From Eubacteriales bacterium (lineage in GTDB: Bacteria > Bacillota > Clostridia > Oscillospirales > CAG-272): a stretch of 36,534 nucleotides of DNA. The notes beneath the pieces are model-generated. The model was given only the letters and a program-made list of their open reading frames with translations, was not told where the DNA came from and ran no database searches. Positions within the stretch are counted from its first letter, which is position 1, and each line of letters opens with the position of its first letter. The position numbers and the translations under genes were made by a program. The stretch lies in assembly GCA_045593485.1 (NCBI GenBank), contig JAZNWS010000068.1:1-36534 (forward strand), in the 5' to 3' direction. Below, piece after piece: positions 3,896-30,690 of this stretch.

Positions 3896-4234
3896 ATGAA
3901 TTGTCTGTTTTGTAAAATAATTGCGGGAGACATTCCCTCATCAAAGGTATACGAGGACGATAAGGTTTACGCGTTCAAGGACATAAACCCCCAGGCGCCC
4001 GTACACGTGCTTGTCGTGCCCAAGACTCATATTGAGTCGGCAGACTGTGTGAATTCGGACAACTCCGATGATATAAAGGCTGTGTTTGAGGCAATACCCA
4101 AGGTTGCTGCAGTTTGCGGACTTGAGACTGGATACAGAGTTATAACCAATATCGGTGAGGACGGATGTCAGACCGTAAAGCATATACATTTCCATGTTCT
4201 CGGCGGCAAGAAGCTCCCCGAAAATATGGGCTAA
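3896..4234 (+). CDS. HIT (histidine triad) family nucleotide hydrolase/transferase
   Basis: 112 aa. Histidine triad HIHFHVLGG. GGAGGAAA SD upstream. Confidence 0.9.
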   Translation: MNCLFCKIIAGDIPSSKVYEDDKVYAFKDINPQAPVHVLVVPKTHIESADCVNSDNSDDIKAVFEAIPKVAAVCGLETGYRVITNIGEDGCQTVKHIHFHVLGGKKLPENMG

Positions 4235-4259
4235 GAAATACGAAAGGAAGAATAAATAT

Positions 4260-5177
4260 ATGAAAACAACACTTATTATAATGGCTGCGGGTATTGGCTC
4301 GCGCTACGGTGGCGGTATAAAGCAGCTTGCAGAGGTTGGACCTTCGGGCGAGATAATTCTTGATTATTCAATACACGACGCGCTCGAGGCAGGCTTTAAC
4401 GACGTAATTTTCATCATAAGACGCGACATAGAGCAGGATTTCCGTGAGGTCATAGGCAACAGAATGGAGAAAATATGCCCCTGCGCGTACGTTTTCCAGG
4501 ATATACACGACCTGCCCAATCACATGGTTATGCCTGAGGGCAGAACAAAGCCTTGGGGTACGGGTCACGCGGTGCTTGCCTGCAAGGGTACACTTAAAAA
4601 TCCCGGATGTATTATTAACGCCGACGACTATTACGGCAAGGAAGCCTTTGTTAAGATGCACGACTTTATCGTGAATAAGATGGACGTGAACAACACCGAG
4701 TGTCTTGACATCGCCATGCCCGGATTTGTTCTTAAGAACACCCTGAGTGACAACGGAAGCGTGACTCGCGGTGTTTGCAGGGTTGACGGTAACGGACATC
4801 TTACAGACATTGACGAAACCAAGAATATATACAAGGACGGCGAGGGTGCGTACAAGCTTGTTGGCGAGGAGAAGATACCTCTCGATCCCGATTCCGCTGT
4901 TTCAATGAATATGTGGGCTATCACTCCCGAGTTTGTCAACAGACTTGAGGCGGGCTTTACAGAATTTCTTGAGGCGGGCAATCTTGGTGACAAGAAGGCG
5001 GAATATCTGCTTCCCACAACAATCGGAGATATGCTGAAGGCGGGAACTGCAAAGGTGACTGTGCTCAGCACAAACGACAAATGGTTCGGCGTGACCTATG
5101 CCGAGGACAGAGCAACCGTTGCGGCAGAGTTTGACAGACTTGTAAAAGAGGGCGTTTATAAGACTCCGTTGTTCTAA
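4260..5177 (+). CDS. Nucleotidyltransferase family protein (sugar-phosphate NTP-transferase-like)
   Basis: N-terminal glycine-rich NTP-transferase loop LIIMAAGIGSRYGGGIKQL. The start was moved from the track ORF (4194) to the ATG at 4260, which follows AGGAAG and avoids overlapping the HIT gene. Confidence 0.7.
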   Translation: MKTTLIIMAAGIGSRYGGGIKQLAEVGPSGEIILDYSIHDALEAGFNDVIFIIRRDIEQDFREVIGNRMEKICPCAYVFQDIHDLPNHMVMPEGRTKPWGTGHAVLACKGTLKNPGCIINADDYYGKEAFVKMHDFIVNKMDVNNTECLDIAMPGFVLKNTLSDNGSVTRGVCRVDGNGHLTDIDETKNIYKDGEGAYKLVGEEKIPLDPDSAVSMNMWAITPEFVNRLEAGFTEFLEAGNLGDKKAEYLLPTTIGDMLKAGTAKVTVLSTNDKWFGVTYAEDRATVAAEFDRLVKEGVYKTPLF

Positions 5178-7734: not shown

Positions 7735-8397
7735 ATGAATAAAGAATGGGCAGAAATGAATAAGACCTTACAGTTACAAATTAAGAGAAAAGACACTTTT
7801 GCAAAGGGTATAGATACATTATTAGAACTTCGCAGAAGCCTAATGGAACAAATTATGCAGTTTAGGAATGAACTGTCGGATGCTGATTTTTGTGCTATGC
7901 CTTATATGAACGTAAAAGGTTATCATAACAAAACGATTGCGTATTCCTTGTGGCATATTTTTCGTATAGAGGATATTGTAGCACATTCGCTTATTGCAAA
8001 TGATGAACAAATTTTGTTTAAGGGAGATTATCAAAGTCGCATAAAATCCCCGATTATAACAACTGCAAATGAACTTGTAAAAGAAGAAATTGGAGAGTTT
8101 TCTAAGAAACTGTCTATTGAAGAACTGTATAATTATATTGGTGATGTTGATAAATCAACAACACAGATTTTAAAGACACTTACATATAGTGATATGAAGG
8201 AAAGAATATCAGATGAAAGAAGAAAACAGTTGGAAAAATTAAATGTAGTAAGTGTAGATGAAAATGCCTATTGGTTAATTGATTATTGGTGTGGAAAAGA
8301 TGTAAAAGGATTGATTCAGATGCCATTTTCAAGACATTGGATTATGCATATTGAGGCATGTTTGAAGATAAGAGATAAACAGTTATCTATTAAGTAA
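7735..8397 (+). CDS. Hypothetical protein, possibly DinB-like helical bundle
   Basis: 220-aa ORF with GAGGTG SD and a strong downstream terminator. His-containing helices (SLWHIFRIED, SRHWIMHIE) suggest a DinB-type fold, but this is a weak call. The gene is markedly AT-rich compared with its neighbours. Confidence 0.6.
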   Translation: MNKEWAEMNKTLQLQIKRKDTFAKGIDTLLELRRSLMEQIMQFRNELSDADFCAMPYMNVKGYHNKTIAYSLWHIFRIEDIVAHSLIANDEQILFKGDYQSRIKSPIITTANELVKEEIGEFSKKLSIEELYNYIGDVDKSTTQILKTLTYSDMKERISDERRKQLEKLNVVSVDENAYWLIDYWCGKDVKGLIQMPFSRHWIMHIEACLKIRDKQLSIK

Positions 8398-14636: not shown

Positions 14637-15131
14637 ATGTCTATTGAGAGAGTTTCAAAGGAAAATTATTATCTTGACATCGCGCGCACGGTTGCGGAGC
14701 GCGGCACTTGTATCCGCCGTAAATTCGGCGCGATAATAGTAAAGGACGACGTTATTATTTCCACAGGCTATAACGGAGCTCCCAGAGGCAGACAGAACTG
14801 CACGGATATGAATATGTGTATGAGAGACAAGCTTGGCATTCCGAGAGGGGAGAGATACGAGCTTTGCCGTTCGGTTCACGCAGAGGCAAACGCCATAATC
14901 GCCGCGCCCAGAGACAGAATGCTTGGCGCAACTCTTTATATGGTGTGCGTAAATCCCACAGATAACAGCCTTTATGACGGCACGAGCAGCTGTATGATGT
15001 GCAAGCGACTTATCATAAACGCGGGTATTGATACCGTAGTCGTAAGAGATACGGATACCGATTACAGAGTGATAAGAGTTGCGGATTGGATAGAGAACGA
15101 TGACTCACTCTCGGGAGTTTTCGGATATTGA
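14637..15131 (+). CDS. dCMP deaminase (ComEB-like cytidine/deoxycytidylate deaminase)
   Basis: 164 aa. Zinc motifs HAEANAI and SCMMCKRLI (CxxC). Confidence 0.85.
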   Translation: MSIERVSKENYYLDIARTVAERGTCIRRKFGAIIVKDDVIISTGYNGAPRGRQNCTDMNMCMRDKLGIPRGERYELCRSVHAEANAIIAAPRDRMLGATLYMVCVNPTDNSLYDGTSSCMMCKRLIINAGIDTVVVRDTDTDYRVIRVADWIENDDSLSGVFGY

Positions 15132-15147
15132 GAAAAGGTAGAAATAA

Positions 15148-15615
15148 ATGAGTACGGAGAATAAAAAAGCAAGAATATATCCCGAAAGACTGACAGCAGA
15201 CGACCTTGACGGCGCGGCAGAGATAGAAAAGCTCTGCTTTGGCGCGCAGGCGTGGTCAAAGAACAGCCTTGAGCTTCTCACAAAAGAGGGAATAGGAATG
15301 GGCATGGTCTGCCGTAAGGATGGCAAAACAGTCGCTTACGGCGGCATGCTTTGCGTGGTTGACGAGGGGCAGATAACCAATATCGCAACTCATCCCGACT
15401 ATCGCAGACAGGGCTATGGCGAGGCGGTCGTTGAAGCCCTGAAAAAGCACGCGAAAAACAACCGTCTTGACGTTATAACCCTTGAGGTCAGAGAGTCGAA
15501 CGCGGCGGCGATAAAGCTATATACGTCCTGCGGCTTTAAGGTGGACGGCAAGCGTAAGGACTTTTACACGAAGCCCACCGAGAGCGCGGTGCTTATGTCC
15601 TGCAAAATCAAATAA
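15148..15615 (+). CDS. rimI: Ribosomal-protein-alanine N-acetyltransferase
   Basis: 155 aa. GNAT acetyl-CoA motif RRQGYGEAVV. Sits immediately upstream of tsaD, as in the tsaEB-rimI-tsaD arrangement. Confidence 0.85.
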   Translation: MSTENKKARIYPERLTADDLDGAAEIEKLCFGAQAWSKNSLELLTKEGIGMGMVCRKDGKTVAYGGMLCVVDEGQITNIATHPDYRRQGYGEAVVEALKKHAKNNRLDVITLEVRESNAAAIKLYTSCGFKVDGKRKDFYTKPTESAVLMSCKIK

Positions 15616-15628
15616 GAGGGAAAATTTA

Positions 15629-16630
15629 ATGTATATACTTGGAATGGAGTCCTCGTGCGACGAGACAAGTGCGGCTATAATTGAAGCGCACGACGGAATT
15701 CTTGAGATTAGATCGAATATTATTGCCTCGCAGATCGAGACGCACCGACTTTACGGCGGTGTCGTTCCCGAGATAGCGAGCAGAGCACATATCGAGGCGG
15801 TGTCCTCTATAACAAAAGAGGCTCTTGAGACGGCGGGGATAACTCTTGCGGACGTGGGCTGCGTTGCAGTCACCACACACCCTGGGCTCATCGGCGCGCT
15901 GCTTGTGGGCGTCAATTTCGCAAAGTCTCTGGCTTTTGCAAATAATATTCCGCTTGTTTCGGTAAATCATATTCACGGACATATATCAGCGGCGTATCTG
16001 TCGCATACGGACCTCAAGCCCCCGTTTTTGTCGGTGGTGGTCTCAGGCGGTCATACCTGCCTTTACGTTTGCGAGGGATATAACGAATTTCGCGAGATAG
16101 GCGGCACGCGTGACGACGCGGCGGGCGAGGCGTTTGATAAGATCGGACGCGTGATAGGTATGCCTTACCCGGGCGGCGCGGCGCTTGACAGACTTGCGCA
16201 TACGGGAGATAAGACTGCTGTAAAGCTTCCGTCGCCCGCACTCCGCGACAGTCTTGATTTTTCGTTCAGCGGAATTAAGACGGCGGCGCTAAATTACATC
16301 AATTCAAGCAAGCAAAAGGGCGAGGAGATAAACACCGCCGACCTTGCTGCGTCCTATACCGACGCTATAGTTTCTGCTATCGTCAAACAAGCAGAGGGTG
16401 CGCTCAAGCAGACGGGACTTGATACTCTCGTGCTTTCGGGTGGAGTTGCGGCAAACTCTCATCTGCGCGCGGCTCTTGAAAAAATGTGCAATAAACACGG
16501 CGCAAGATTTGTAGTACCGCCCATCTCTCTTTGCGGAGATAACGGAGCGATGATCGCCGCGTCGGGATACTTTGAGTACCAAAATGGCAATTTTGCGGAT
16601 ACGTCAACAAACGCCTCTGCGTGCGATTAA
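15629..16630 (+). CDS. tsaD: tRNA N6-adenosine threonylcarbamoyltransferase
   Basis: 333 aa. Kae1/TsaD motifs GMESSCDETS, VNHIHGHI, SGGVAAN. Confidence 0.95.
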   Translation: MYILGMESSCDETSAAIIEAHDGILEIRSNIIASQIETHRLYGGVVPEIASRAHIEAVSSITKEALETAGITLADVGCVAVTTHPGLIGALLVGVNFAKSLAFANNIPLVSVNHIHGHISAAYLSHTDLKPPFLSVVVSGGHTCLYVCEGYNEFREIGGTRDDAAGEAFDKIGRVIGMPYPGGAALDRLAHTGDKTAVKLPSPALRDSLDFSFSGIKTAALNYINSSKQKGEEINTADLAASYTDAIVSAIVKQAEGALKQTGLDTLVLSGGVAANSHLRAALEKMCNKHGARFVVPPISLCGDNGAMIAASGYFEYQNGNFADTSTNASACD

Positions 16631-16708
16631 AATTATTCCGAAAATTTTGCATTTTCATTATTTTACACAAAAAAATTTACGCAGGGAGAAAAATTCATCG
16701 AACAAAGG

Positions 16709-16887
16709 TTTTCCACCGACTTTTCAACAAACTGTGGAAAACTCGGGAAAACACAAAGAAAATTCTCCGCAAAATGTCGAAAAAAACCGTATTAAGTCAA
16801 TTTTAGCCTTGATTGGCAAGGATTTCTGTGGATAAGGCTGTGGAAACTGTGGATAACTTATTGGCTGTGGAAAACTTTTTTTCCATA
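16709..16887. promoter_or_regulatory. DnaA-box cluster
   Basis: TGTGGATAA, the reverse complement of TTATCCACA, is perfect at 16827-16835 and 16848-16856. TGTGGAAAA (8/9) at 16733-16741 and 16866-16874. TGTGGAAAC (7/9) at 16839-16847. Opposite-orientation 7/9 boxes at 16709-16717 and 16879-16887. Confidence 0.7.
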
Positions 16888-17002
16888 AATTCAAAAGATT
16901 TACGAAAAGTTTATTTTTTGAAAAAACCGCTTTGTCAAGATGTAAAAATGCACAAATTTCTACTTTTGACAAAGAATTTACAAACGAAAAGGAGAGCTTA
17001 TT

Positions 17003-17710
17003 ATGAGCGATAATTTTGATAACAAGGAAATGCTCCAGAAAACTGACGACGGCTTCAAGCCCAATATCTCTCCCGCGGTAATTCGCCGTCTGCCGAGATA
17101 TTACAGATATCTGCGCGAGCTTATCACTCACGGCAGAATGAGAATAAGCTCGGGCGAGCTTGCGAGCATGATGGACGTGACCGCATCCCAGATAAGACAG
17201 GACCTCAACTGCTTTGGCGGCTTTGGTCAGCACGGATACGGATATAACGTAAACTACCTTTTCGCAAAAATAAGCGAGATACTCGGCGTTGGCGCAGGCT
17301 TTCACGCGGTCATTATGGGCGCGGGCGACCTCGGACGCGCGCTTGTAAACCTTTCTATGTTTGAAAAGCGCGGAGTTGACATTATAGGAATGTTCGACTC
17401 GGGCGAGGGACTTGTCGGCAAGAGCGTTGCGGGAGTTCGTGTTTATGATATTGACGAGCTTGAAAGATTCTGCGAGGAGAACATAGTGGATATAGCAGTG
17501 CTTACTCTCCCCAAGGAGCAGATAAAGCCCGTGTCAGACAGACTTGTCGCTTGCGGAGTTAAGGGGCTTTGGAACTATATGGGCGTTGAGCTTGATTATC
17601 CCGACAGCGATATAGTTATAGAGAACGTGCATCTGGGCGACTCATTGATGATCCTTAACTATGAAATATGTCGCAGACTTGAAAAGCGCGACGAGGAAAC
17701 AGAAGAATAA
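17003..17710 (+). CDS. rex: Redox-sensing transcriptional repressor Rex
   Basis: 235 aa. N-terminal wHTH motif RRLPRYYRYL and NADH-binding fold IMGAGDLGRAL. AAGGAGAG SD. Confidence 0.9.
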   Translation: MSDNFDNKEMLQKTDDGFKPNISPAVIRRLPRYYRYLRELITHGRMRISSGELASMMDVTASQIRQDLNCFGGFGQHGYGYNVNYLFAKISEILGVGAGFHAVIMGAGDLGRALVNLSMFEKRGVDIIGMFDSGEGLVGKSVAGVRVYDIDELERFCEENIVDIAVLTLPKEQIKPVSDRLVACGVKGLWNYMGVELDYPDSDIVIENVHLGDSLMILNYEICRRLEKRDEETEE

Positions 17711-17730: not shown

Positions 17731-18819
17731 ATGCTTATTAAAATAAATTACGGAGTGGGAGCGGGTGTGTTTCCCACATCCTGCGCCGAGCAGATAAAAC
17801 GCGCGTCGCTTTGCGACCTCAAGGTTCTTTGGCTTATATGCGCAAAGGGCGGAGCCGTCGAGATAGACGAGCTTTGCGAATTTGCGGGAGCTTCGGAGAG
17901 CGAGGTCGTGTCCTCCTTGTCGTACTGGCGCGGGGCGGGCGTGATAGACGCCGACCTATCAAAATCCACGGACAAAACTCAAAGCAAGTCCGAGCCGCAG
18001 GTGCAAAAGCCTAAAAAGTTAGCCCGCGCGGAAACGCTTCCCGAATATACGTCGGACGAGATAGCGAATATACTTGAAAAGAACAGTCAGCTTTCGTCTC
18101 TTATTGACGAGTGCCAGAGGATAATGGGCAAGATGTTCAATATCCATGAGGTAAACGTGCTTATCGGACTTGTAGACTACCTTGACCTTGACTGCGATTA
18201 CATAATGCTGCTTCTGACTTATTGCGTATCCCACGGCAAAAAGACTCTGCACTATGCGGAAAAGACGGCGTTTGGTTTTTACGACAGCGGTATTACCACG
18301 GTTGATGCGCTCTCGGCAGAGCTTCAGCGCAGAGAGAACGTCGCGTCGGTAGAGGGCAAGATACGCACTCTGTTCGGCCTTGGCGGCAGAGCGCTCACAA
18401 CGAAGGAGAAAAAGGAAATATCCGCATGGATAAACGATTGGGGATTTTCCTTTGAGATAATAGAAAAGGCGTACGAGACGACGGTTGACGCCACGGGCGG
18501 CGCGTCGCTTCATTACGCAAACTCGGTGCTTGAGAGATGGAACGCCGAGGGAATACGTACAATAGAGCAGATAGATGCATCTGCCGAGAAATTCGAGGCG
18601 GAAAAGGCGCAGAAAAAGACAAAAAAATCACCCAAGTCCAAGGGCGAGAGTGAAAATCAGAATTCCAGCTTTGATACTGACGAATTTTTCGAGGCGGCAA
18701 TACGCCGTAGCCTCGGGGATGCCTTGAATGAGCAAATGGAAAAAACACATAACAACATTGACACGGATGAGCTTTTTGAAGATCTGGTACACCACAGGAT
18801 CGGGGGCAAGAAGAAATGA
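17731..18819 (+). CDS. DnaD-domain replication initiation/helicase-loading protein
   Basis: 362 aa. N-terminal wHTH-like region, central DnaD/DnaB_2-type repeat (LIDECQRIMGK..., YETTVDATGGASLHYANSVLERW), acidic C-terminal tail. Its stop overlaps the loader ATPase start by 4 nt. Confidence 0.75.
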   Translation: MLIKINYGVGAGVFPTSCAEQIKRASLCDLKVLWLICAKGGAVEIDELCEFAGASESEVVSSLSYWRGAGVIDADLSKSTDKTQSKSEPQVQKPKKLARAETLPEYTSDEIANILEKNSQLSSLIDECQRIMGKMFNIHEVNVLIGLVDYLDLDCDYIMLLLTYCVSHGKKTLHYAEKTAFGFYDSGITTVDALSAELQRRENVASVEGKIRTLFGLGGRALTTKEKKEISAWINDWGFSFEIIEKAYETTVDATGGASLHYANSVLERWNAEGIRTIEQIDASAEKFEAEKAQKKTKKSPKSKGESENQNSSFDTDEFFEAAIRRSLGDALNEQMEKTHNNIDTDELFEDLVHHRIGGKKK

Positions 18820-19784
18820 GCTTTAACAGAGAAAATTACAAGAGAATAAAAGAGGAATACGACGGCAAGTATCTCAAAGCAAGAGAAGCAGCAAATCTTC
18901 GCCGCGCGCAGATACACGCCGAGCTTCCCGAGATAGCCAAGATTGACCGCGAGCTTTCAAGTGTAGGTCTTGAGATTCTTCAGGCGGCTATAAGCGGACG
19001 CAGCTCCGAGATTGATAGTATTAAGCAAAAGAATATTGCGCTTCTCGAAAAGAGGGCACAGATACTTACTGAGGCTGGCTATCCTGCGGATTACACCGAA
19101 ATTAAATACGAGTGTCAGCTTTGCTCGGACACGGGCGCTGTGGATAATAAAATGTGCTCGTGTATGAGAAGAAAGCTCATTGAGGCGGGAATTGCGTCGT
19201 CGGGCATGGCAGACCTTATAGCGCGTCAGAGCTTTGAGAATTTCTCCCTTGACTATTACAAGCAGAGCGAAAAGACATATGCTACAATGAGTTCTATCTA
19301 TTCGCTTCTCACAAGGTATGCCGAGAAATTCACACCCGAGACATCAGGCAACATCGCTATGTTCGGCGGCACGGGACTAGGAAAGACACACCTTTCAAGC
19401 GCTGTCGCGGGTAAGGTGATAGAGAAGGGACACGACGTTTATTATGCAAGCGCGCTCTCGCTCTTTGCGGATTTTGAGATGCGTCGCTTTGGCAACAGCT
19501 CGTCAGTCTCTGCCGACGGTAATATAAACAGATATTTTGACTGTGACCTGCTTATAATCGACGATCTTGGCATTGAAGTGATAAATCAGTTTACATCGTC
19601 TTGCCTCTACGATATTATAAATTCAAGATTGAACGCGAAAAAACCCACGATAATCAGTACAAATCTCACGCAGGAAGAGTTCCGCAAGAAATATTGGGAC
19701 AGAATTACAAGCCGTGTGCTTGGCGAATACATAGTTCTCCCGTTCTGCGGCACGGATATAAGAACGCAGAAGTTGAGAAAATAA
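18816..19784 (+). CDS. DnaI/DnaC-like helicase loader AAA+ ATPase
   Basis: 322 aa. N-terminal Cys cluster CQLCSDTG..CSC, Walker A GGTGLGKTHL, Walker B LLIIDDLG. Coupled to the DnaD-domain gene. Confidence 0.8.
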   Translation: MSFNRENYKRIKEEYDGKYLKAREAANLRRAQIHAELPEIAKIDRELSSVGLEILQAAISGRSSEIDSIKQKNIALLEKRAQILTEAGYPADYTEIKYECQLCSDTGAVDNKMCSCMRRKLIEAGIASSGMADLIARQSFENFSLDYYKQSEKTYATMSSIYSLLTRYAEKFTPETSGNIAMFGGTGLGKTHLSSAVAGKVIEKGHDVYYASALSLFADFEMRRFGNSSSVSADGNINRYFDCDLLIIDDLGIEVINQFTSSCLYDIINSRLNAKKPTIISTNLTQEEFRKKYWDRITSRVLGEYIVLPFCGTDIRTQKLRK

Positions 19785-19839: not shown

Positions 19840-19909
19840 GATTATTTCACGTATAATCTCCCTCAAACCGCAGAAAAATACTTATTGCAAAACAAAAACG
19901 GAGGTTATT

Positions 19910-20356
19910 ATGCAACAGACAAAAACCAGAGAAGCGGAAATGCTTGAAAAGATATACAAGAATATGAAAATGGGCTCGGACTCTATGGTAAACCTTATGC
20001 CCTCGGCAAAGGACGACGAGTTCAAGACCCTTATGACTGCGCAGCTTGACGGCTACGAAAGATTCGCCGCGCAGGCGCGCGACAGACTTCTGACCGTCGG
20101 CGGCGAGCCCAAGGAAGAAAATATGATGACGAAAATGTGGGCAAGCGTGGGAATGAAGATGAACACGATGATGGACTCCACCACCTCGCACCTCGCCGAG
20201 ATGATAGTTGAGGGCTCGACTATGGGTATGACGGACACAATTAAGGTGCTCCGCGATTATGAGAACACCGATGTGTCCGAGACCGCGATGAAGCTCGCCA
20301 AGGATATTATCAAGTTCGAGGAAAAGAACATTGAGATAATGAAGAAGCATCTTTAA
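19910..20356 (+). CDS. Hypothetical helical protein (148 aa)
   Basis: ATG at 19910 preceded by GGAGG. The track ORF from 19601 overlaps the upstream gene and the terminator, so the internal start was chosen. No family recognised with confidence. Confidence 0.6.
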   Translation: MQQTKTREAEMLEKIYKNMKMGSDSMVNLMPSAKDDEFKTLMTAQLDGYERFAAQARDRLLTVGGEPKEENMMTKMWASVGMKMNTMMDSTTSHLAEMIVEGSTMGMTDTIKVLRDYENTDVSETAMKLAKDIIKFEEKNIEIMKKHL

Positions 20357-20391: not shown

Positions 20392-20784
20392 TTATTCATT
20401 ATCCGCAAAGGAATCAAGCACCTCGGTGTTTATCTCATCTTCGCCAAACTCGGTCTCTTTTGCCTTTTTGGCTTGCTTTTTTGCCTCGGCTTCCTGCTTT
20501 GTCTGCTCATATTCGGTATTCAACTTAGCTATTTTGTCCTCAAGCTCAGATATTTTATTTACTGTTTCGGATATTTTCTCGGTGAGCCTTGCGTTCTGCA
20601 CGTCATCCTCAAGCGTGAGCTTTTTATAGGTCAGCTTGCCAAGTCTTAAAAACTCGTTTTCCTTTTCTGAGGAAAGCTTTGCGATTTTTATTTTTATCTC
20701 AGCAAGACTTGCAAGCTCCTCGGTTTTTTGAACTGCCTTGCCTGTAAGCTCGCTTATATTCTTTTTTATATTATTCCAATTCAT
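20392..20784 (-). CDS. Hypothetical coiled-coil protein with an acidic C-terminus
   Basis: 130 aa with heptad-like K/E/L-rich sequence. No family recognised. Confidence 0.55.
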   Translation of the reverse strand: MNWNNIKKNISELTGKAVQKTEELASLAEIKIKIAKLSSEKENEFLRLGKLTYKKLTLEDDVQNARLTEKISETVNKISELEDKIAKLNTEYEQTKQEAEAKKQAKKAKETEFGEDEINTEVLDSFADNE

Positions 20785-25727: not shown

Positions 25728-27902
25728 ATGGCAAAGAAAACAAGCAATAATAATCAGAAATTGCATCCCGACGCGTCTGCGGAAAAGCCTTTGGCAGGCG
25801 GGGAAAAAAAGCCTGTAGCGCCAACCCATAAGAGAAAGGGAGGCGGACATAAGAAGTCTGCGTCAAAGCCCGAATCGCAGGGGGCTACCGTAAAAAAATC
25901 ACAGCAAAAAGCAAAGGAAAAGGTTGAAGTAAGCAGCCGTCAGGAGCAGACCGATATTTCAGCCTTTTATAAATCATATCCCACACAGCCTCGCCGTATT
26001 ATGAGCGCGGATGAGTGGATGGATCAGTATTTTGCATCCGAGCAGGATCACGCGGCCGATAATATTCCTGCGCGCGAGGAAAAGTCTGAAAAAAAGCAGA
26101 GCCAGGCTCGGAGCAAGACAAATCACGAAAAGACAAGACAGGCACATACCGAGAGCGAGTCTGTTCAGACGAAGTCTGCTCAGGTGAAGTCTCCAAGGCC
26201 GAATAAGAGCGCAAAGCCCGCTCGCGCAAGCCAGCCTGCGCCCGAGGGCAAGCTCAAGATAATTCCTCTCGGTGGACTTAACGAGATAGGAAAGAATATG
26301 ACGGTCATTCAGTATGAGGACGATATTGTCGTTGTCGATTGCGGACTCGGCTTTCCCGAGGACGATATGCCCGGTATAGACCTTGTTATTCCCGACGTGA
26401 CCTATCTTGAGGAAAACAAGGACAAGATACGCGGACTTGTGCTGACCCACGGTCATGAGGACCATATCGGCGCAATACCTTACGTGCTCCGCAATATAAA
26501 TCCTCCTATTTACGGAACGAATCTGACGCTTGGAATAGTTAAAAACAAGCTCAAGGAGGTCACGCTTCCGTATCAGCCCAAGCTGAATTGCGTCAGCGCG
26601 GGAGACGTTATTAAGCTCGGCAGTCTTTCTGTGGAGTTTATACACGTAAACCACTCCATAGCGGACGCCTGCGCGCTTGCTATAAAGACACCTCACGGCA
26701 CGATAGTTCATTCGGGTGACTTCAAGCTGGACCTGTCTCCCATCGACGGCGAGATAATGGACCTCACCCGCTTTGGCGAGCTTGGCAAGGAGGGCGTGCT
26801 TGTGCTTATGTGCGAGTCCACAAACGCGGAGCGCCCCGGCACGACGCCGTCGGAGAAGAAGGTAGGCGCGTCGCTTGAATATATCTTTACCGTACAGAAG
26901 GAAAAGAGAATAGTTATCTCTACCTTCTCGTCCAACGTTCACCGCGTGCAGCAGATAATCGACGTTGCGGCAAGACACGGACGCAAGGTTGCTATCACGG
27001 GAAGAAGCATGCTTAATATTGTTGGCGCGGCAGTAGAGCTCGGGTATATGAACGTTCCCGAGGGAGTGCTTATAGACGTGACGGAAATCCGCAGATACAG
27101 TCCCCACGAGGTGACTCTTATCACCACGGGAAGCCAGGGCGAGCCGATGAGCGCGCTTTACCGTATGGCATTTGGCGAGCACAGAGAGGTTAAGCTCGGC
27201 GCGACGGACGTCGTAGTGCTTTCGTCCTCACCCATACCGGGAAATGAGAAGCTTATAAACCGTATAGTCAACGAGCTTTGCAAGCTCGGCGTTGAGGTAA
27301 TACGCGACGCAGCGGTTGAGGTTCACGTTTCGGGACATGCGTGTCAGGAGGAGATAAAGCTTTTGTATGCGCTGACAAAGCCCAAGTATTTTATGCCTAT
27401 TCACGGCGAGTACAAGCATATGTCCGCTAACAGAAATATTGCTCTCTATATGGGAATGGATCCTCGGAATATATTTATATCCGATATAGGTAAGGTTCTT
27501 GAGATAGACGGACACGGCGCAAAATGGGGCGGCACGGTCACCGCGGGCAAGGTGCTTATTGATGGCTACGGCGTTGGTGACGTCGGAAATATCGTTCTGC
27601 GTGACAGAATACTTCTGTCTCAGGACGGTGTGATAATTATAGTAGCAACGATAAGCTCGGACGGTGGATACGTTATGTCAGGCCCCGACATAGTGACACG
27701 AGGATTCGTATACGTGAGAGAGTCCGAGGATCTTATGGAGGAAATGAAGGCGGTCGCGCAGAAGTCCATAATGTCCTGTCTTGGCGGCAGATATACCGAT
27801 TGGTTCAGAATAAAGACCAAGATAAAGGACGATATGTCAAGGTATATATCCTCAAAGACAAAGCGCAAGCCTATGATCATTCCGATGATCATGAACGTGT
27901 GA
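25728..27902 (+). CDS. rnj: Ribonuclease J with a 174-aa basic N-terminal extension
   Basis: 724 aa. The beta-lactamase/beta-CASP core starts at about residue 175 (KLKIIPLGGLNEIGKNM) and has HGHEDHIG. AAGGAAGG SD before the ATG at 25728. Confidence 0.9.
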   Translation: MAKKTSNNNQKLHPDASAEKPLAGGEKKPVAPTHKRKGGGHKKSASKPESQGATVKKSQQKAKEKVEVSSRQEQTDISAFYKSYPTQPRRIMSADEWMDQYFASEQDHAADNIPAREEKSEKKQSQARSKTNHEKTRQAHTESESVQTKSAQVKSPRPNKSAKPARASQPAPEGKLKIIPLGGLNEIGKNMTVIQYEDDIVVVDCGLGFPEDDMPGIDLVIPDVTYLEENKDKIRGLVLTHGHEDHIGAIPYVLRNINPPIYGTNLTLGIVKNKLKEVTLPYQPKLNCVSAGDVIKLGSLSVEFIHVNHSIADACALAIKTPHGTIVHSGDFKLDLSPIDGEIMDLTRFGELGKEGVLVLMCESTNAERPGTTPSEKKVGASLEYIFTVQKEKRIVISTFSSNVHRVQQIIDVAARHGRKVAITGRSMLNIVGAAVELGYMNVPEGVLIDVTEIRRYSPHEVTLITTGSQGEPMSALYRMAFGEHREVKLGATDVVVLSSSPIPGNEKLINRIVNELCKLGVEVIRDAAVEVHVSGHACQEEIKLLYALTKPKYFMPIHGEYKHMSANRNIALYMGMDPRNIFISDIGKVLEIDGHGAKWGGTVTAGKVLIDGYGVGDVGNIVLRDRILLSQDGVIIIVATISSDGGYVMSGPDIVTRGFVYVRESEDLMEEMKAVAQKSIMSCLGGRYTDWFRIKTKIKDDMSRYISSKTKRKPMIIPMIMNV

Positions 27903-28042: not shown

Positions 28043-29866
28043 ATGGGAAAAGGCAACAGAAACAAGCTTCAGAGAGCTCAGCAGGTAAGTGAGACAGATA
28101 AGTATCTTACAAGCTCTCAAAAGAAAAAGAACAATAACGATACAAAGAAGGGTAAGATAATTGCGGCAGTCTGCATAGTTCTTGCAGTTGCTGTGGTACT
28201 CAGTATCGTTTGCACAGTGCTTGATCAGACAGGAGTATTTGGTCAGATCGAGGGCGCTATCAACAGAAACACTGAGATCATGTCTCTTCAGACGGGTCAC
28301 TTCACAGTCAATAAAATGACTATGAATATTTTCTTTAACGAGCAGATAATGACCTGGTACGGACAGTACGGCTCGTACGCGCAGTATTTCGGACTTGACT
28401 TCAGCAAGGACCTCAGAGATCAGGTATATTCCAAGGCAACGGCAGATAAGCCCGCTGTATCCTGGTACGACTACTTCCTTGATCAGGCAAAGTCTCAGGC
28501 TCAGATGTATCTCGTTTATGCAAACGCGGCTTACGATATGGGTCTTGAGCTTGACGATGAGGACAGAGAGAATATTGACGCGGCTATCGCATCCATCGAC
28601 GCATCCGCTGAGGCTTACGGACTTAAGTACAGCGATTTCTACGGCGAGGGTGTCAAGAAGGACGATATTCTTAAGTACTACGAGATAGTCTACTATGCAA
28701 ACAAGTACTCCGAGGTTATGACCGAGAAGTATAAGGAGGATCTTAAGAAGGATACCGAGAACAAGGCGATCATAGAATTCCGTGAGAACAACAAGGAAAG
28801 CTTCTATACCGCAGACGTTCTTAAGTATCAGATCAAGGTTGATTCCAAGGGAATGACCGACGTTGAATACGACAACGCTGTAAAGGATGCTAAGGCGAGA
28901 GCCGATAAGCTTGCGGGCGCAAGCAACGCGGACGAATTCTTCAAGCTTATTCTTGAGGACATTGAATCCCAGAAGACTGAGGATCAGGGACCCTCTGTAA
29001 ACGTTACGGAAAAGCCCAGCGAGGGCGCTACAGAAAAGCCCACGACAGCTCCTACCGAGCCCTCTATGGATGATTATAAGGATACTATTGAGTATACAAC
29101 AGGCGGCGGCAAGCTCGAGGATTGGCTTTTTGGTATAGAGGAGGAGACCTCCACGGTTGAGCGTGATCCCGCAGAGAACGGCGATACCTTCGTTGAGGAT
29201 AAGACAGAGACATATACCGAAAAGGCTACCGAGAATTCAACTGAGAAGCCCACATATAAGAAGTATACCGTGACAGCTTACTGTGTATATGAGTCTATGC
29301 ACTTCGACACAGACCTTACAAGAAACCTTGGCTACTTTATCTCCACAGATAAGGCAACCGCAGAGGCGATCCTTAAGAAGTTCAAGGAAGGCACAATGAG
29401 CGCAGAGACACTTGACAAGCTCGGCAAGGAAGCAGTAGACGCGCTCCCCGATGACAGCAAGATATCTATCGGTCACGCAGCTCCCAAGCAGGTTGCTCCG
29501 GGATATTTCAAGCAAAGTGACAGCGCGTTTGTGCTGATAGACAATTGGCTTGAGGATGAGGCTCGCAAGCCAGGAGACGTTTCTGACGTTATAACCCTGT
29601 TGAGTAAGCCTGCAGGCGCTAAGGAAACCACAAATTATTACGCAATATGCTTCTTTGAGGATTTCGACGAGGCTGTATGGCACGTACAGGCAACAAACGG
29701 AGTTGTAGGCGAAATGTTTGAGGAATGGTATCAGGGCGAGGACGGAAAGGGCGGTCAGCTCGCATCTAACCCCGTGACCTTCAACGATAAGAAGACGGAT
29801 GATCTCTACCAGACATACGTTCCTTATATGCTCAGCTATTTCTCGTCTCTCGGCGCACTTTCCTGA
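28043..29866 (+). CDS. Hypothetical N-terminally membrane-anchored extracytoplasmic protein
   Basis: 607 aa. Basic cytoplasmic tail, one TM segment (IIAAVCIVLAVAVVLSIVCTVL), a large acidic ectodomain, and TEKP-type low-complexity linkers. No family assigned with confidence. Confidence 0.7.
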   Translation: MGKGNRNKLQRAQQVSETDKYLTSSQKKKNNNDTKKGKIIAAVCIVLAVAVVLSIVCTVLDQTGVFGQIEGAINRNTEIMSLQTGHFTVNKMTMNIFFNEQIMTWYGQYGSYAQYFGLDFSKDLRDQVYSKATADKPAVSWYDYFLDQAKSQAQMYLVYANAAYDMGLELDDEDRENIDAAIASIDASAEAYGLKYSDFYGEGVKKDDILKYYEIVYYANKYSEVMTEKYKEDLKKDTENKAIIEFRENNKESFYTADVLKYQIKVDSKGMTDVEYDNAVKDAKARADKLAGASNADEFFKLILEDIESQKTEDQGPSVNVTEKPSEGATEKPTTAPTEPSMDDYKDTIEYTTGGGKLEDWLFGIEEETSTVERDPAENGDTFVEDKTETYTEKATENSTEKPTYKKYTVTAYCVYESMHFDTDLTRNLGYFISTDKATAEAILKKFKEGTMSAETLDKLGKEAVDALPDDSKISIGHAAPKQVAPGYFKQSDSAFVLIDNWLEDEARKPGDVSDVITLLSKPAGAKETTNYYAICFFEDFDEAVWHVQATNGVVGEMFEEWYQGEDGKGGQLASNPVTFNDKKTDDLYQTYVPYMLSYFSSLGALS

Positions 29867-29894: not shown

Positions 29895-29929
29895 TATGGG
29901 GTTGTCACACAATGTGTTTCAACCCCATA
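29895..29929 (+). other. Extended stem-loop between the 607-aa gene and the Cys-rich gene
   Basis: TATGGGGTTG...CAACCCCATA (10 bp) with an inner ACAC/GTGT stem. No T-tract, so it is probably not a terminator. Confidence 0.45.
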
Positions 29930-29997
29930 AAATTCTATGTCACACAAAAGCACTGAAGCATAAAATCATAGTAAATTCAGACGATCGGAGAATAGAT

Positions 29998-30690
29998 ATG
30001 GTATTGAATGAAAAACAAACGACAGTTGCATACAGATGTCCCTCTTGCGGAGCGGGGGTTATGAGTCCCGTAGGCATTTTTGCGCTGTCCGGAGATATGG
30101 TGAAGCTCAAATGCAGCTGCAAAAACAGCGAAATGACGCTGGTTCATAGAAAAGACAATAACACCGTAAGAATTACCGTTCCTTGCATATTCTGCGAGAA
30201 GCCCCACACATTTACGGTAAATACCTCGTTGTTTTTTTCCAAGGAGCTTTTTGTTCTGCCTTGCCCTTATTCCGATATAAACGTTGGATTCGTCGGAGAG
30301 GAAAACGTGGTCAAAGCGGAGCTTGCGCGTACTGAGCTCGAGCTCCTCGATATGCTTGAGCAGAACGGTATAGAGGATTTTCACAGTCTGCACGGAGACG
30401 AAATGACCATTACAGACTCTCAGATCGTGGATATAGTGACGTTTGTGATACGCGACCTTGATGCAGAGGGAAAGATATTCTGCACCTGTCATCCAAACGG
30501 ACGCGAGCCTATTGCGGACGATATGCTCGAAAGGGAAGACTGCACGTATGACGTGGAATTCACAAATGACGGAATAAAAATAACCTGTACCGAATGTGGC
30601 GACAGCGCGATTATTCCCACTGATTCTCGACTTACGGCGCACGCGTTCCTTAACTGTGACAAGCTTGTGCTTGAGAAAAATGAAAAATAA
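29998..30690 (+). CDS. Hypothetical cysteine-rich (multi zinc-ribbon-like) protein
   Basis: 230 aa from the internal ATG at 29998 (GGAG 8 nt upstream). Motifs CPSCG, CSC, PCIFC, CTCH, CTECG. The track ORF start at 29896 lies inside the upstream hairpin. Confidence 0.65.
   Translation: MVLNEKQTTVAYRCPSCGAGVMSPVGIFALSGDMVKLKCSCKNSEMTLVHRKDNNTVRITVPCIFCEKPHTFTVNTSLFFSKELFVLPCPYSDINVGFVGEENVVKAELARTELELLDMLEQNGIEDFHSLHGDEMTITDSQIVDIVTFVIRDLDAEGKIFCTCHPNGREPIADDMLEREDCTYDVEFTNDGIKITCTECGDSAIIPTDSRLTAHAFLNCDKLVLEKNEK

Follow-up and report, generated by a model that had tools for sequence, protein, structure and literature searches.

A predicted non-origin DnaA-box cluster downstream of tsaD in a Clostridia genome, read as the counterpart of the Bacillus subtilis gcp-ydiF cluster

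The spacer between tsaD, the gene for the tRNA t6A37 threonylcarbamoyltransferase, and rex, the gene for a redox-sensing repressor, carries a dense cluster of DnaA boxes in contig JAZNWS010000068.1 of a Eubacteriales bacterium (36,534 nucleotides; this whole stretch of analysed DNA is called the window below). We consider it probable (about 0.72) that positions 16709-16874 are a non-origin, high-affinity DnaA cluster and the Clostridia counterpart of the gcp-ydiF cluster of B. subtilis (gcp being tsaD), with a role in DnaA titration to which a local dampening of transcription would have been added. A known class, the non-origin DnaA-box clusters of Firmicutes with the one at tsaD/gcp among them, is extended by this finding, and current understanding is not overturned. 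New here are how widely the cluster is conserved, the shared arrangement of three boxes (tri-box) with its polarity, and the juxtaposition with helicase-loader genes.

A dense and non-random box cluster between tsaD and rex

From the end of the tsaD stop codon (16630) to the rex ATG (17003) the spacer measures 372 bp, as stated in a first-pass annotation of this DNA. That annotation had also listed seven DnaA boxes in the spacer. All seven were recovered in position, both by reading the sequence and by an exhaustive scan; the scan added one box that had been overlooked (A2, 16721-16729), and the last box of the list (16879-16887) proved not to be conserved. The features of the spacer and the gene before it are as follows.

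15629-16630, plus strand: tsaD (Pfam TsaD, E = 5.6e-91); the cluster is tied to its 3' end
16709-16717, plus strand: box A1, TTTTCCACC (7/9 matches), in TTATCCACA orientation, closest to tsaD
16721-16729, plus strand: box A2, TTTTCAACA (7/9), from the exhaustive scan, conserved in relatives
16733-16741, minus strand: box A3, TGTGGAAAA (8/9), facing A1 and A2, conserved in the alignment
16807-16821, plus strand: weak hairpin CCTTGATTGGCAAGG directly before the tri-box, with a 5-bp stem and a poor T tail, unconvincing as a terminator
16827-16856, minus strand: tri-box core, TGTGGATAA (9/9), ggc, TGTGGAAAC (7/9) and TGTGGATAA (9/9), all reading along tsaD transcription
16827-16835 and 16848-16856, minus strand: the two perfect boxes TGTGGATAA (9/9), from scan and sequence reading
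16839-16847, minus strand: the box between the perfect ones, TGTGGAAAC (7/9)
16866-16874, minus strand: box B4, TGTGGAAAA (8/9), with 9/9 columns identical across seven aligned sequences
16879-16887, plus strand: box TTTTCCATA (7/9), unconserved in relatives and probably not a functional box

Counted from the tsaD stop, the first box lies at 79 bp and the tri-box at 197 bp; the rex ATG follows the boxes at a distance of 130-290 bp. The four boxes at 16827-16874 had been described as CTGTGGA(T/A)A repeats, and a C indeed precedes each of them. Two of the three perfect boxes in the 36.5-kb window fall within the cluster, and, of the 12 boxes with no more than one mismatch, 4 are packed into 142 bp. 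When boxes were given 3, 2 or 1 points for 0, 1 or 2 mismatches and the maximum over 200 bp was taken, the cluster scored 16 and the next-best place in the window 6, while 300 simulated first-order Markov sequences had a mean of 4.4 and a maximum of 8. The spacer is 68.5% A+T, as compared with 53.6% for the window. The cluster is thereby confirmed as real and non-random. It is hardly credible that a chance pile-up of A/T-rich near-repeats, or a set of sites for some other protein or RNA-level factor, is all there is to it. Several boxes are admittedly mere 7/9 matches in A+T-rich DNA, and the one at 16879-16887 is unconserved; however, none of the 300 simulations reached the observed score, the conserved alignment columns are the exact DnaA consensus, no Rfam family reaches its gathering score anywhere in the window, and purified DnaA binds the homologous Bacillus site (PMC4447404).

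Two further motifs were set aside. The third perfect box of the window (19139-19147) lies inside a dnaI-like gene, where it encodes A-V-D-N, and it is absent from the same gene in the related loci L201, L202, L203 and L205, so that it is probably a chance occurrence. The heptamer TGTCGAA at 16774-16780 matches the Spo0A-box consensus; it was dismissed because a 7-mer is expected ∼4-5 times by chance in the window and because this one is unconserved in the alignment.

Spacer conservation in the window's own lineage falls on the boxes

Homologues of the window's TsaD with 73-97% identity were found in related metagenome-assembled genomes (MAGs). The gene order deaminase-rimI-tsaD-spacer-rex-DnaB_2-AAA+ is kept on contigs whose TsaD is 86, 80, 77 and 73% identical and at two genome loci (70-73%). 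Mean column identity over seven aligned spacers is 52%, and the invariant columns coincide with boxes A1-A3, the tri-box and B4, the tri-box being nearly invariant. The A1 position is occupied by TTTTCCACA or TTTTCCCCA in relatives, and that of A2 by TTTTCCACA (8/9) in L202, L203, L205 and L003. From the last box to the rex ATG, both sequence and length vary among relatives. Alignment of related tsaD-rex spacers had been proposed as a check on the first reading of this DNA, and it singles out the boxes as the conserved part of the spacer, which argues for purifying selection confined to them.

One other block in the spacer recurs. CTGTCAA(G/A)A, at 16930-16939 in the window and 60-95 bp upstream of the rex ATG, is common to the window, L201, L003 and L113, in unconserved surroundings. 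In the window it is contained in an inverted repeat, CTTTGTCAA...TTGACAAAG (16929-16973). This repeat was rejected as a Rex operator, since its half-sites, judged by eye, are 27 bp apart as compared with ∼4 in a Rex operator.

The same element follows tsaD in many Firmicutes

To place the cluster in a wider setting, 80 tsaD-anchored loci were sampled from genomes by a TsaD-alignment scan (Clostridia, Negativicutes and several other phyla, with no Bacilli). Two peptide patterns determined which loci entered the sample, and the Bacillus loci were retrieved apart from it; neighbouring genes were called by a greedy picker of open reading frames (ORFs), with representatives checked against Pfam. 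A cluster scoring 9-19 was found within 600 bp after tsaD in 13 of the 80, and elsewhere in the ∼800 kb of tsaD flanks no 200-bp segment scored above 7. Positive loci come from Alkaliphilus peptidifermentans, from one MAG each of Syntrophomonas and Carboxydocellales, from several Clostridiaceae MAGs and from the clade of the window, among others; they fall into at least 8 separate groups interleaved with negatives in a TsaD tree (a single-protein neighbour-joining tree with unreliable deep branches). None of the non-Firmicute loci among the 80 has a cluster after tsaD.

The gene 3' of the cluster varies: it may be a convergent ABC-F gene, a convergent SLT transglycosylase, a histidine kinase, a subtilase, lgt, an amidase or a VanZ protein. 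Box polarity is conserved, with 71 of 86 boxes (at most one mismatch) reading TGTGGATAA along tsaD and the opposite-facing ones closest to tsaD. This layout, TTATCCACA-type boxes nearest tsaD and then a run of the TGTGGATAA type, is found in the window, in 17 other tsaD-anchored loci and in both Bacillus loci. Loci L017 and L049 show the order tsaD, cluster, convergent ABC-F gene of the ydiF type, and rex 2.6-4.7 kb further on; rex has no box cluster of its own in these two loci or in Bacillus. Since L017 and L049 keep this arrangement, the gene order of the window is most simply derived from it by loss of ydiF and moaC. The suggestion that the position 3' of tsaD is anciently conserved therefore holds up, given the conserved spacer boxes, the at least 8 positive Firmicute lineages and the polarity shared with Bacillus.

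The window cluster resembles gcp-ydiF of B. subtilis

In B. subtilis, gcp-ydiF is among the stable DnaA-binding clusters outside oriC (PMC2533591, PMC3245932), its binding having been observed in vivo (PMC2533591), and the cluster 3' of gcp is conserved among species of the Bacillus group, with no known role (Ishikawa 2007, PMC2533591). In vitro its 10 sites are bound with a dissociation constant of 0.15 uM, and ATP-DnaA is preferred 16-fold (Smith & Grossman 2015, PMC4447404). The first-pass annotation had pointed to such a cluster with rex nearby, and this agrees with the published descriptions (PMC2533591, PMC3245932) and with the B. subtilis locus itself, which we fetched via database protein P0121 (99% identical to the probe sequence). 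The locus reads tsaE-tsaB-rimI-tsaD, cluster, convergent ydiF, moaC, rex, and a second Bacillus has the same order. Cluster scores are 17 in B. subtilis (at most 5 in the rest of the locus), 18 in the second Bacillus and 16 in the window. The B. subtilis cluster lies 26-195 bp after tsaD and has 10 boxes, three of the TTATCCACA type nearest tsaD and then seven of the TGTGGATAA type that include a zero-gap pair.

The window cluster and gcp-ydiF share the position directly 3' of tsaD, the strength, the order of orientations, box pairs with zero or 3-bp gaps, and a rex gene nearby. They differ in their flanks: tsaD and ydiF are convergent in B. subtilis, with moaC before rex, whereas the window has neither ydiF nor moaC, and its cluster lies immediately before rex-dnaD-like-dnaI-like, in the same direction as these genes. 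The exact tri-box (perfect, N3, weak, perfect) is present in the window and many Clostridia, whereas B. subtilis has a di-box variant only. DnaA binding has been demonstrated for the Bacillus cluster; the window cluster is known from its sequence, and we read it as the same element.

Deletion of all six clusters in B. subtilis leads to early initiation (Okumura 2012, PMC3245932). The gcp-ydiF cluster is absent from the eight gene sets that a review lists as directly regulated by DnaA (PMC8203912). Reviews of 2021 and 2026 assign no function to it, and our literature search found no paper that pairs DnaA boxes with tsaD. A functional likeness, at most, exists with datA of E. coli, which is also a non-origin DnaA-box cluster that lowers initiation potential, lies 3' of a transcription unit and is affected by read-through (PMC10950094). 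Unlike the window cluster, with which it has no sequence homology and in which no IHF site is expected, datA acts via IHF and hydrolysis of DnaA-ATP.

The cluster is not a replication origin

That the cluster lies outside oriC, as had been proposed when it was called a secondary cluster, is supported by several observations. Pfam and NCBIfam annotation of the window's ORFs yielded neither dnaA nor dnaN. The GC skew shows no switch in the window, being +0.09 to +0.12 on either side of the cluster, and the cumulative skew rises monotonically. No run of at least 6 central-A triplets, as expected of DnaA-trios, was found on either strand of 16601-17010 with a simple scan rather than a trained model. 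We therefore regard a chromosomal origin, or one half of a split origin, as very improbable. The density of the cluster, its perfect boxes, its A+T-rich flanks and the adjoining replication-initiation genes would fit an origin, but the missing dnaA and dnaN, the constant sign of the skew and the lack of a trio-like run beside the boxes do not, and the homologous B. subtilis cluster, ∼0.63 Mb from oriC, is not an origin either (PMC2533591, PMC4447404). Firmicute oriC arrays, located upstream of dnaA and in the dnaA-dnaN spacer, are like the window cluster in box consensus and tight same-direction packing. The latter differs from them in having no dnaA or dnaN, skew switch, DnaA-trio or unwinding element.

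The tri-box occurs beyond tsaD

Most tsaD-linked clusters have the arrangement TGTGGATAA-N3-TGTGGAnnn-TGTGGATAA in common. A search of metagenomes with this pattern (24 specified bases) gave at least 120 loci, with gut species over-represented, and the listed matches fall into 45 sequence families. Among the matches listed, tsaD stands just upstream in constant orientation in 9 of the 45 families; a tenth tsaD family, L113, represents the lineage of the window and is truncated upstream. The tri-box is consequently not specific to tsaD, which adjoins it in only ∼10 of the 45 families among the matches listed; on sequence grounds it is a generic DnaA module.

Some of the other contexts are familiar. 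The tri-box occurs at jag-mnmE in L152 and in L134 (5529-5558, inside the 457-aa mnmE frame and not upstream of it), a locus that matches the thdF-jag cluster site of B. subtilis, and in one family among the matches listed (L122) it lies just 3' of dnaA. In L103, L150 and L160 (motif-forward positions 2944, 4111 and 5661) it is found between a class II aminoacyl-tRNA synthetase gene (D/K/N type) and mraZ-rsmH, 40-120 bp before mraZ, which suggests a DnaA input into the division and cell-wall cluster of some Clostridia; B. subtilis DnaA binds the ftsL promoter region (PMC8203912). Other tri-boxes directly follow the 3' end of spo0A (L147 and L187, at least two families) or, in four families (L128, L175, L184 and L171), that of an acyl-ACP thioesterase gene. 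To our knowledge, neither place has been described as a DnaA site. The amidase gene after the L067 cluster is also the neighbour in the largest non-tsaD tri-box family, and it would appear that the cluster can stay with its downstream neighbour when tsaD is replaced.

One context bears on the genes downstream of the window cluster. In L127, L191 and L084, the murC stop codon is followed by a tri-box (TTATCCACA towards the next gene), a dnaD-like gene and a dnaI-like gene, an association of boxes with loader genes that is independent of the one in the window. The distance from the tri-box to the start codon is 75-280 bp, and in L191 and L084 another group of boxes is found ∼100 bp ahead of the start codon. 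By our own estimate (∼2 neighbours in 2,500 genes per family), ∼0.04 such dnaD-like/dnaI-like families would be expected by chance in 45.

As a side observation, strong DnaA sites stand beside genes for tRNA anticodon-loop modification more than once. One of these genes, ywlC of B. subtilis, is tsaC. Both t6A genes still lacked a known function at the time the DnaA sites of B. subtilis were mapped. The sites in question are those at tsaD (window and Bacillus), at ywlC and trmE/mnmE of B. subtilis (PMC2533591), and at a MiaB/MtaB-type enzyme gene in L182.

Transcription around the cluster and possible control of rex-dnaD-dnaI

The cluster is followed by three genes, with 21 bp between rex and the DnaD-domain gene and a 4-bp overlap between the latter and the dnaI-like gene.

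17003-17710, plus strand: rex, redox-sensing repressor (Pfam Put_DNA-bind_N and CoA_binding; NCBIfam Rex equivalog, 268 bits vs a cut-off of 233), first gene after the cluster
17731-18819, plus strand: DnaD-domain protein of the DnaD / B. subtilis DnaB co-loader family (Pfam DnaB_2, E = 2.2e-32, two stretches; NCBIfam DnaD_dom)
18816-19784, plus strand: DnaI/DnaC-like AAA+ helicase-loader candidate (Pfam IstB_IS21 and Bac_DnaA ATPase; NCBIfam PRK06835 equivalog, 285 bits vs a cut-off of 215)

The identities first given to these genes and to tsaD (TsaD, Rex, a DnaD-domain protein and a DnaC/DnaI-type AAA+ protein) are borne out by Pfam and NCBIfam. A link between the cluster and the initiation machinery had also been put forward. 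As a conserved control of dnaD-dnaI this does not stand: because the cluster follows tsaD and the next gene is mostly unrelated or convergent, regulation of dnaD-dnaI cannot be the conserved function, and nor can regulation of rex-dnaD-dnaI, because the element predates that gene order. A co-opted local role is plausible. DnaD and DnaB are reportedly recruited to secondary DnaA sites, to judge by the title of a 2011 paper by Smits. From the sequences at hand, a DnaA input into the expression of loader genes in Clostridia is a reasonable idea.

The promoter scans gave little to build on. For rex, the best sigma-70 match of the promoter tool, TTTACA-16-TATTAT at 16977-17004, overlaps the ribosome-binding site and the ATG and is implausible. 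A weak, recurrent candidate, TGGAAA-17-GAAAAT at 16735-16763, has its -35 element (TGGAAA) within box A3, and the scan of seven relatives yielded matches of 8-9/12 only, with one position weakly recurrent. We considered whether the boxes might mainly be a DnaA-responsive operator of rex-dnaD-like-dnaI-like, repressing or activating, and be kept in the lineage for that reason. This is possible but somewhat doubtful. It would agree with the distance of 130-290 bp between boxes and rex ATG, an arrangement kept in 8/8 lineage loci, and with the weak promoter in box A3, which would place the tri-box in the 5' leader. The tri-boxes before dnaD-like/dnaI-like genes after murC, in three other families where ∼0.04 are expected, fit it as well. 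On the other hand, the same element with the same polarity sits between convergent genes, where there is no promoter to regulate, in B. subtilis, L017, L044, L048 and L070, the cluster follows tsaD regardless of the next gene, the stretch from the last box to rex is conserved neither in sequence nor in length, and no good promoter was found. In addition, L029, an unbiased locus with a dnaD-like/dnaI-like pair, has no cluster, and outside the window lineage the boxes do not travel with rex, as the cluster-free rex genes of L017, L049 and Bacillus illustrate. The known DnaA-controlled promoters of Firmicutes (dnaA, sda, ywlC, yydA; PMC8203912) resemble the window in having multiple boxes near the 5' end of an operon. 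Their boxes are tied to the regulated gene, whereas boxes of the window type are tied to the upstream gene across lineages, with no promoter placed.

Termination was considered in the same way. In 7/8 lineage loci, the window included, the tsaD-rex interval contains no strict intrinsic terminator, and L003 has a terminator-like hairpin between cluster and rex. Between tsaD and the cluster, no strict terminator was found in the window lineage or in most positive loci; in L049, L056 and L207 the cluster is preceded by a good terminator hairpin, which weakens the idea that the cluster itself is the terminator of tsaD. Read-through of transcripts across a DnaA-loaded array is possible. In E. coli, the block of transcription by DnaA reportedly depends on orientation, according to the title of a 1989 paper (listed in PMC13438810). 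The cluster could thus be an orientation-specific DnaA roadblock that ends the rimI-tsaD unit and limits read-through, into rex-dnaD-dnaI here and into convergent ydiF in Bacillus. We think this unlikely as the main explanation. Its polarity relative to tsaD transcription is conserved and a strict terminator before it is mostly lacking, as a roadblock would have it, and in E. coli complexes of DnaA with its boxes at the 3' end of a gene can stop RNA polymerase, as seen for the asnC terminator and for box 2 of datA (PMC10950094). However, in L049, L056 and L207 a roadblock would not be needed to end tsaD transcripts, and a conserved polarity is equally predicted by common descent, small intergenic inversions being rare.

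A probable DnaA pool with a proposed local effect

Our preferred reading remains that of a non-origin DnaA cluster with a titration role. By homology to the validated Bacillus site, the two perfect boxes would be occupied by domain IV of DnaA. The interleaved weaker boxes would then be filled cooperatively by ATP-DnaA to give a same-direction oligomer on the tri-box and B4, and the opposite-facing boxes A1-A3, ∼94 bp upstream, would form a second DnaA patch. Because the element sits between convergent genes in many lineages, Bacillus included, its conserved role is not promoter control; by analogy with the B. subtilis clusters, it would most likely be a chromosomal pool of DnaA that restrains or times initiation. 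With ydiF and moaC lost in the window lineage, the old cluster would now be located in the leader of rex-dnaD-like-dnaI-like, where a DnaA-loaded array would probably also dampen transcription into the helicase-loading genes as a negative feedback. DnaA occupancy at this site, titration and any effect on the operon are what we infer by analogy.

Several points weigh against this account. When gcp-ydiF is deleted alone in B. subtilis, the oriC/terC ratio is unchanged, and when it is re-inserted alone near oriC it fails to rescue the six-fold deletion (PMC3245932); its own share in titration is therefore unproven. Many of the Firmicutes among the 80 loci, including Lachnospiraceae, Oscillospiraceae and Negativicutes (Selenomonadaceae among them), have no cluster after tsaD, so the element is dispensable or relocated in these Firmicutes. 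As for the local effect, neither the promoter tool nor the scan of seven relatives yielded a convincing sigma-70 rex promoter that could be placed relative to the boxes, and, relative to dnaD, the boxes of the window point the opposite way to those of the murC-context loci. The supplementary tables of the B. subtilis study name no DnaA-bound region for dnaB, dnaD or dnaI (PMC4447404).

The case nevertheless merits functional work. In B. subtilis, gcp-ydiF is the sole high-affinity DnaA site without a regulated gene or a single-deletion phenotype, and no explanation has been given for it since 2007; the recurrence of the element at an unchanged position and polarity across several Firmicute classes argues for selection. 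Natural variants are supplied by the loci themselves, with convergent or co-directional downstream genes and with or without a terminator before the cluster. The 30-bp tri-box marks strong predicted DnaA sites in uncultured Clostridia, and it points to a possible DnaA control of helicase-loader genes, which the reviews do not describe for Firmicutes. A bolder combination of these ideas, which we offer as speculation and think improbable as it stands, is that the tsaD-3' cluster is among the oldest conserved non-coding protein-binding elements of Firmicutes (Bacilli, Clostridia, Syntrophomonas, Carboxydocellales). It would be kept for an orientation-dependent cis function beyond bulk titration, and in the window lineage active DnaA would gate transcription from rimI-tsaD into rex-dnaD-like-dnaI-like. 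If true, this would couple initiator activity, redox state and helicase-loader supply, and, taken with the murC-context tri-boxes, the control of helicase-loader genes by DnaA would be a general trait of Clostridia that has not been described so far.

Other genes of the window

Upstream of tsaD (14637-15615), a ComEB-like dCMP/cytidine deaminase gene precedes rimI-tsaD at the place where Bacillus has tsaE-tsaB. The t6A genes tsaE and tsaB must be elsewhere in the genome. The further genes recognised with Pfam and NCBIfam are of an ordinary chromosomal kind: gdh, a pot-type ABC transporter, a cysteine desulfurase, spoVAC, rlmH, galK, RNase J and lepA. The RNase J frame (25728-27902) has 724 aa, and its first recognised domain starts from about residue 189, so that the protein is either extended at its N terminus by ∼180 aa or was assigned a start codon too far upstream. 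Six ORFs of 130-607 aa have no Pfam match (28043-29866, 29896-30690, 4194-5177, 7735-8397, 19847-20350 and 20392-20784). The last two, which have no NCBIfam match either, lie directly after the dnaI-like gene on the opposite strand.

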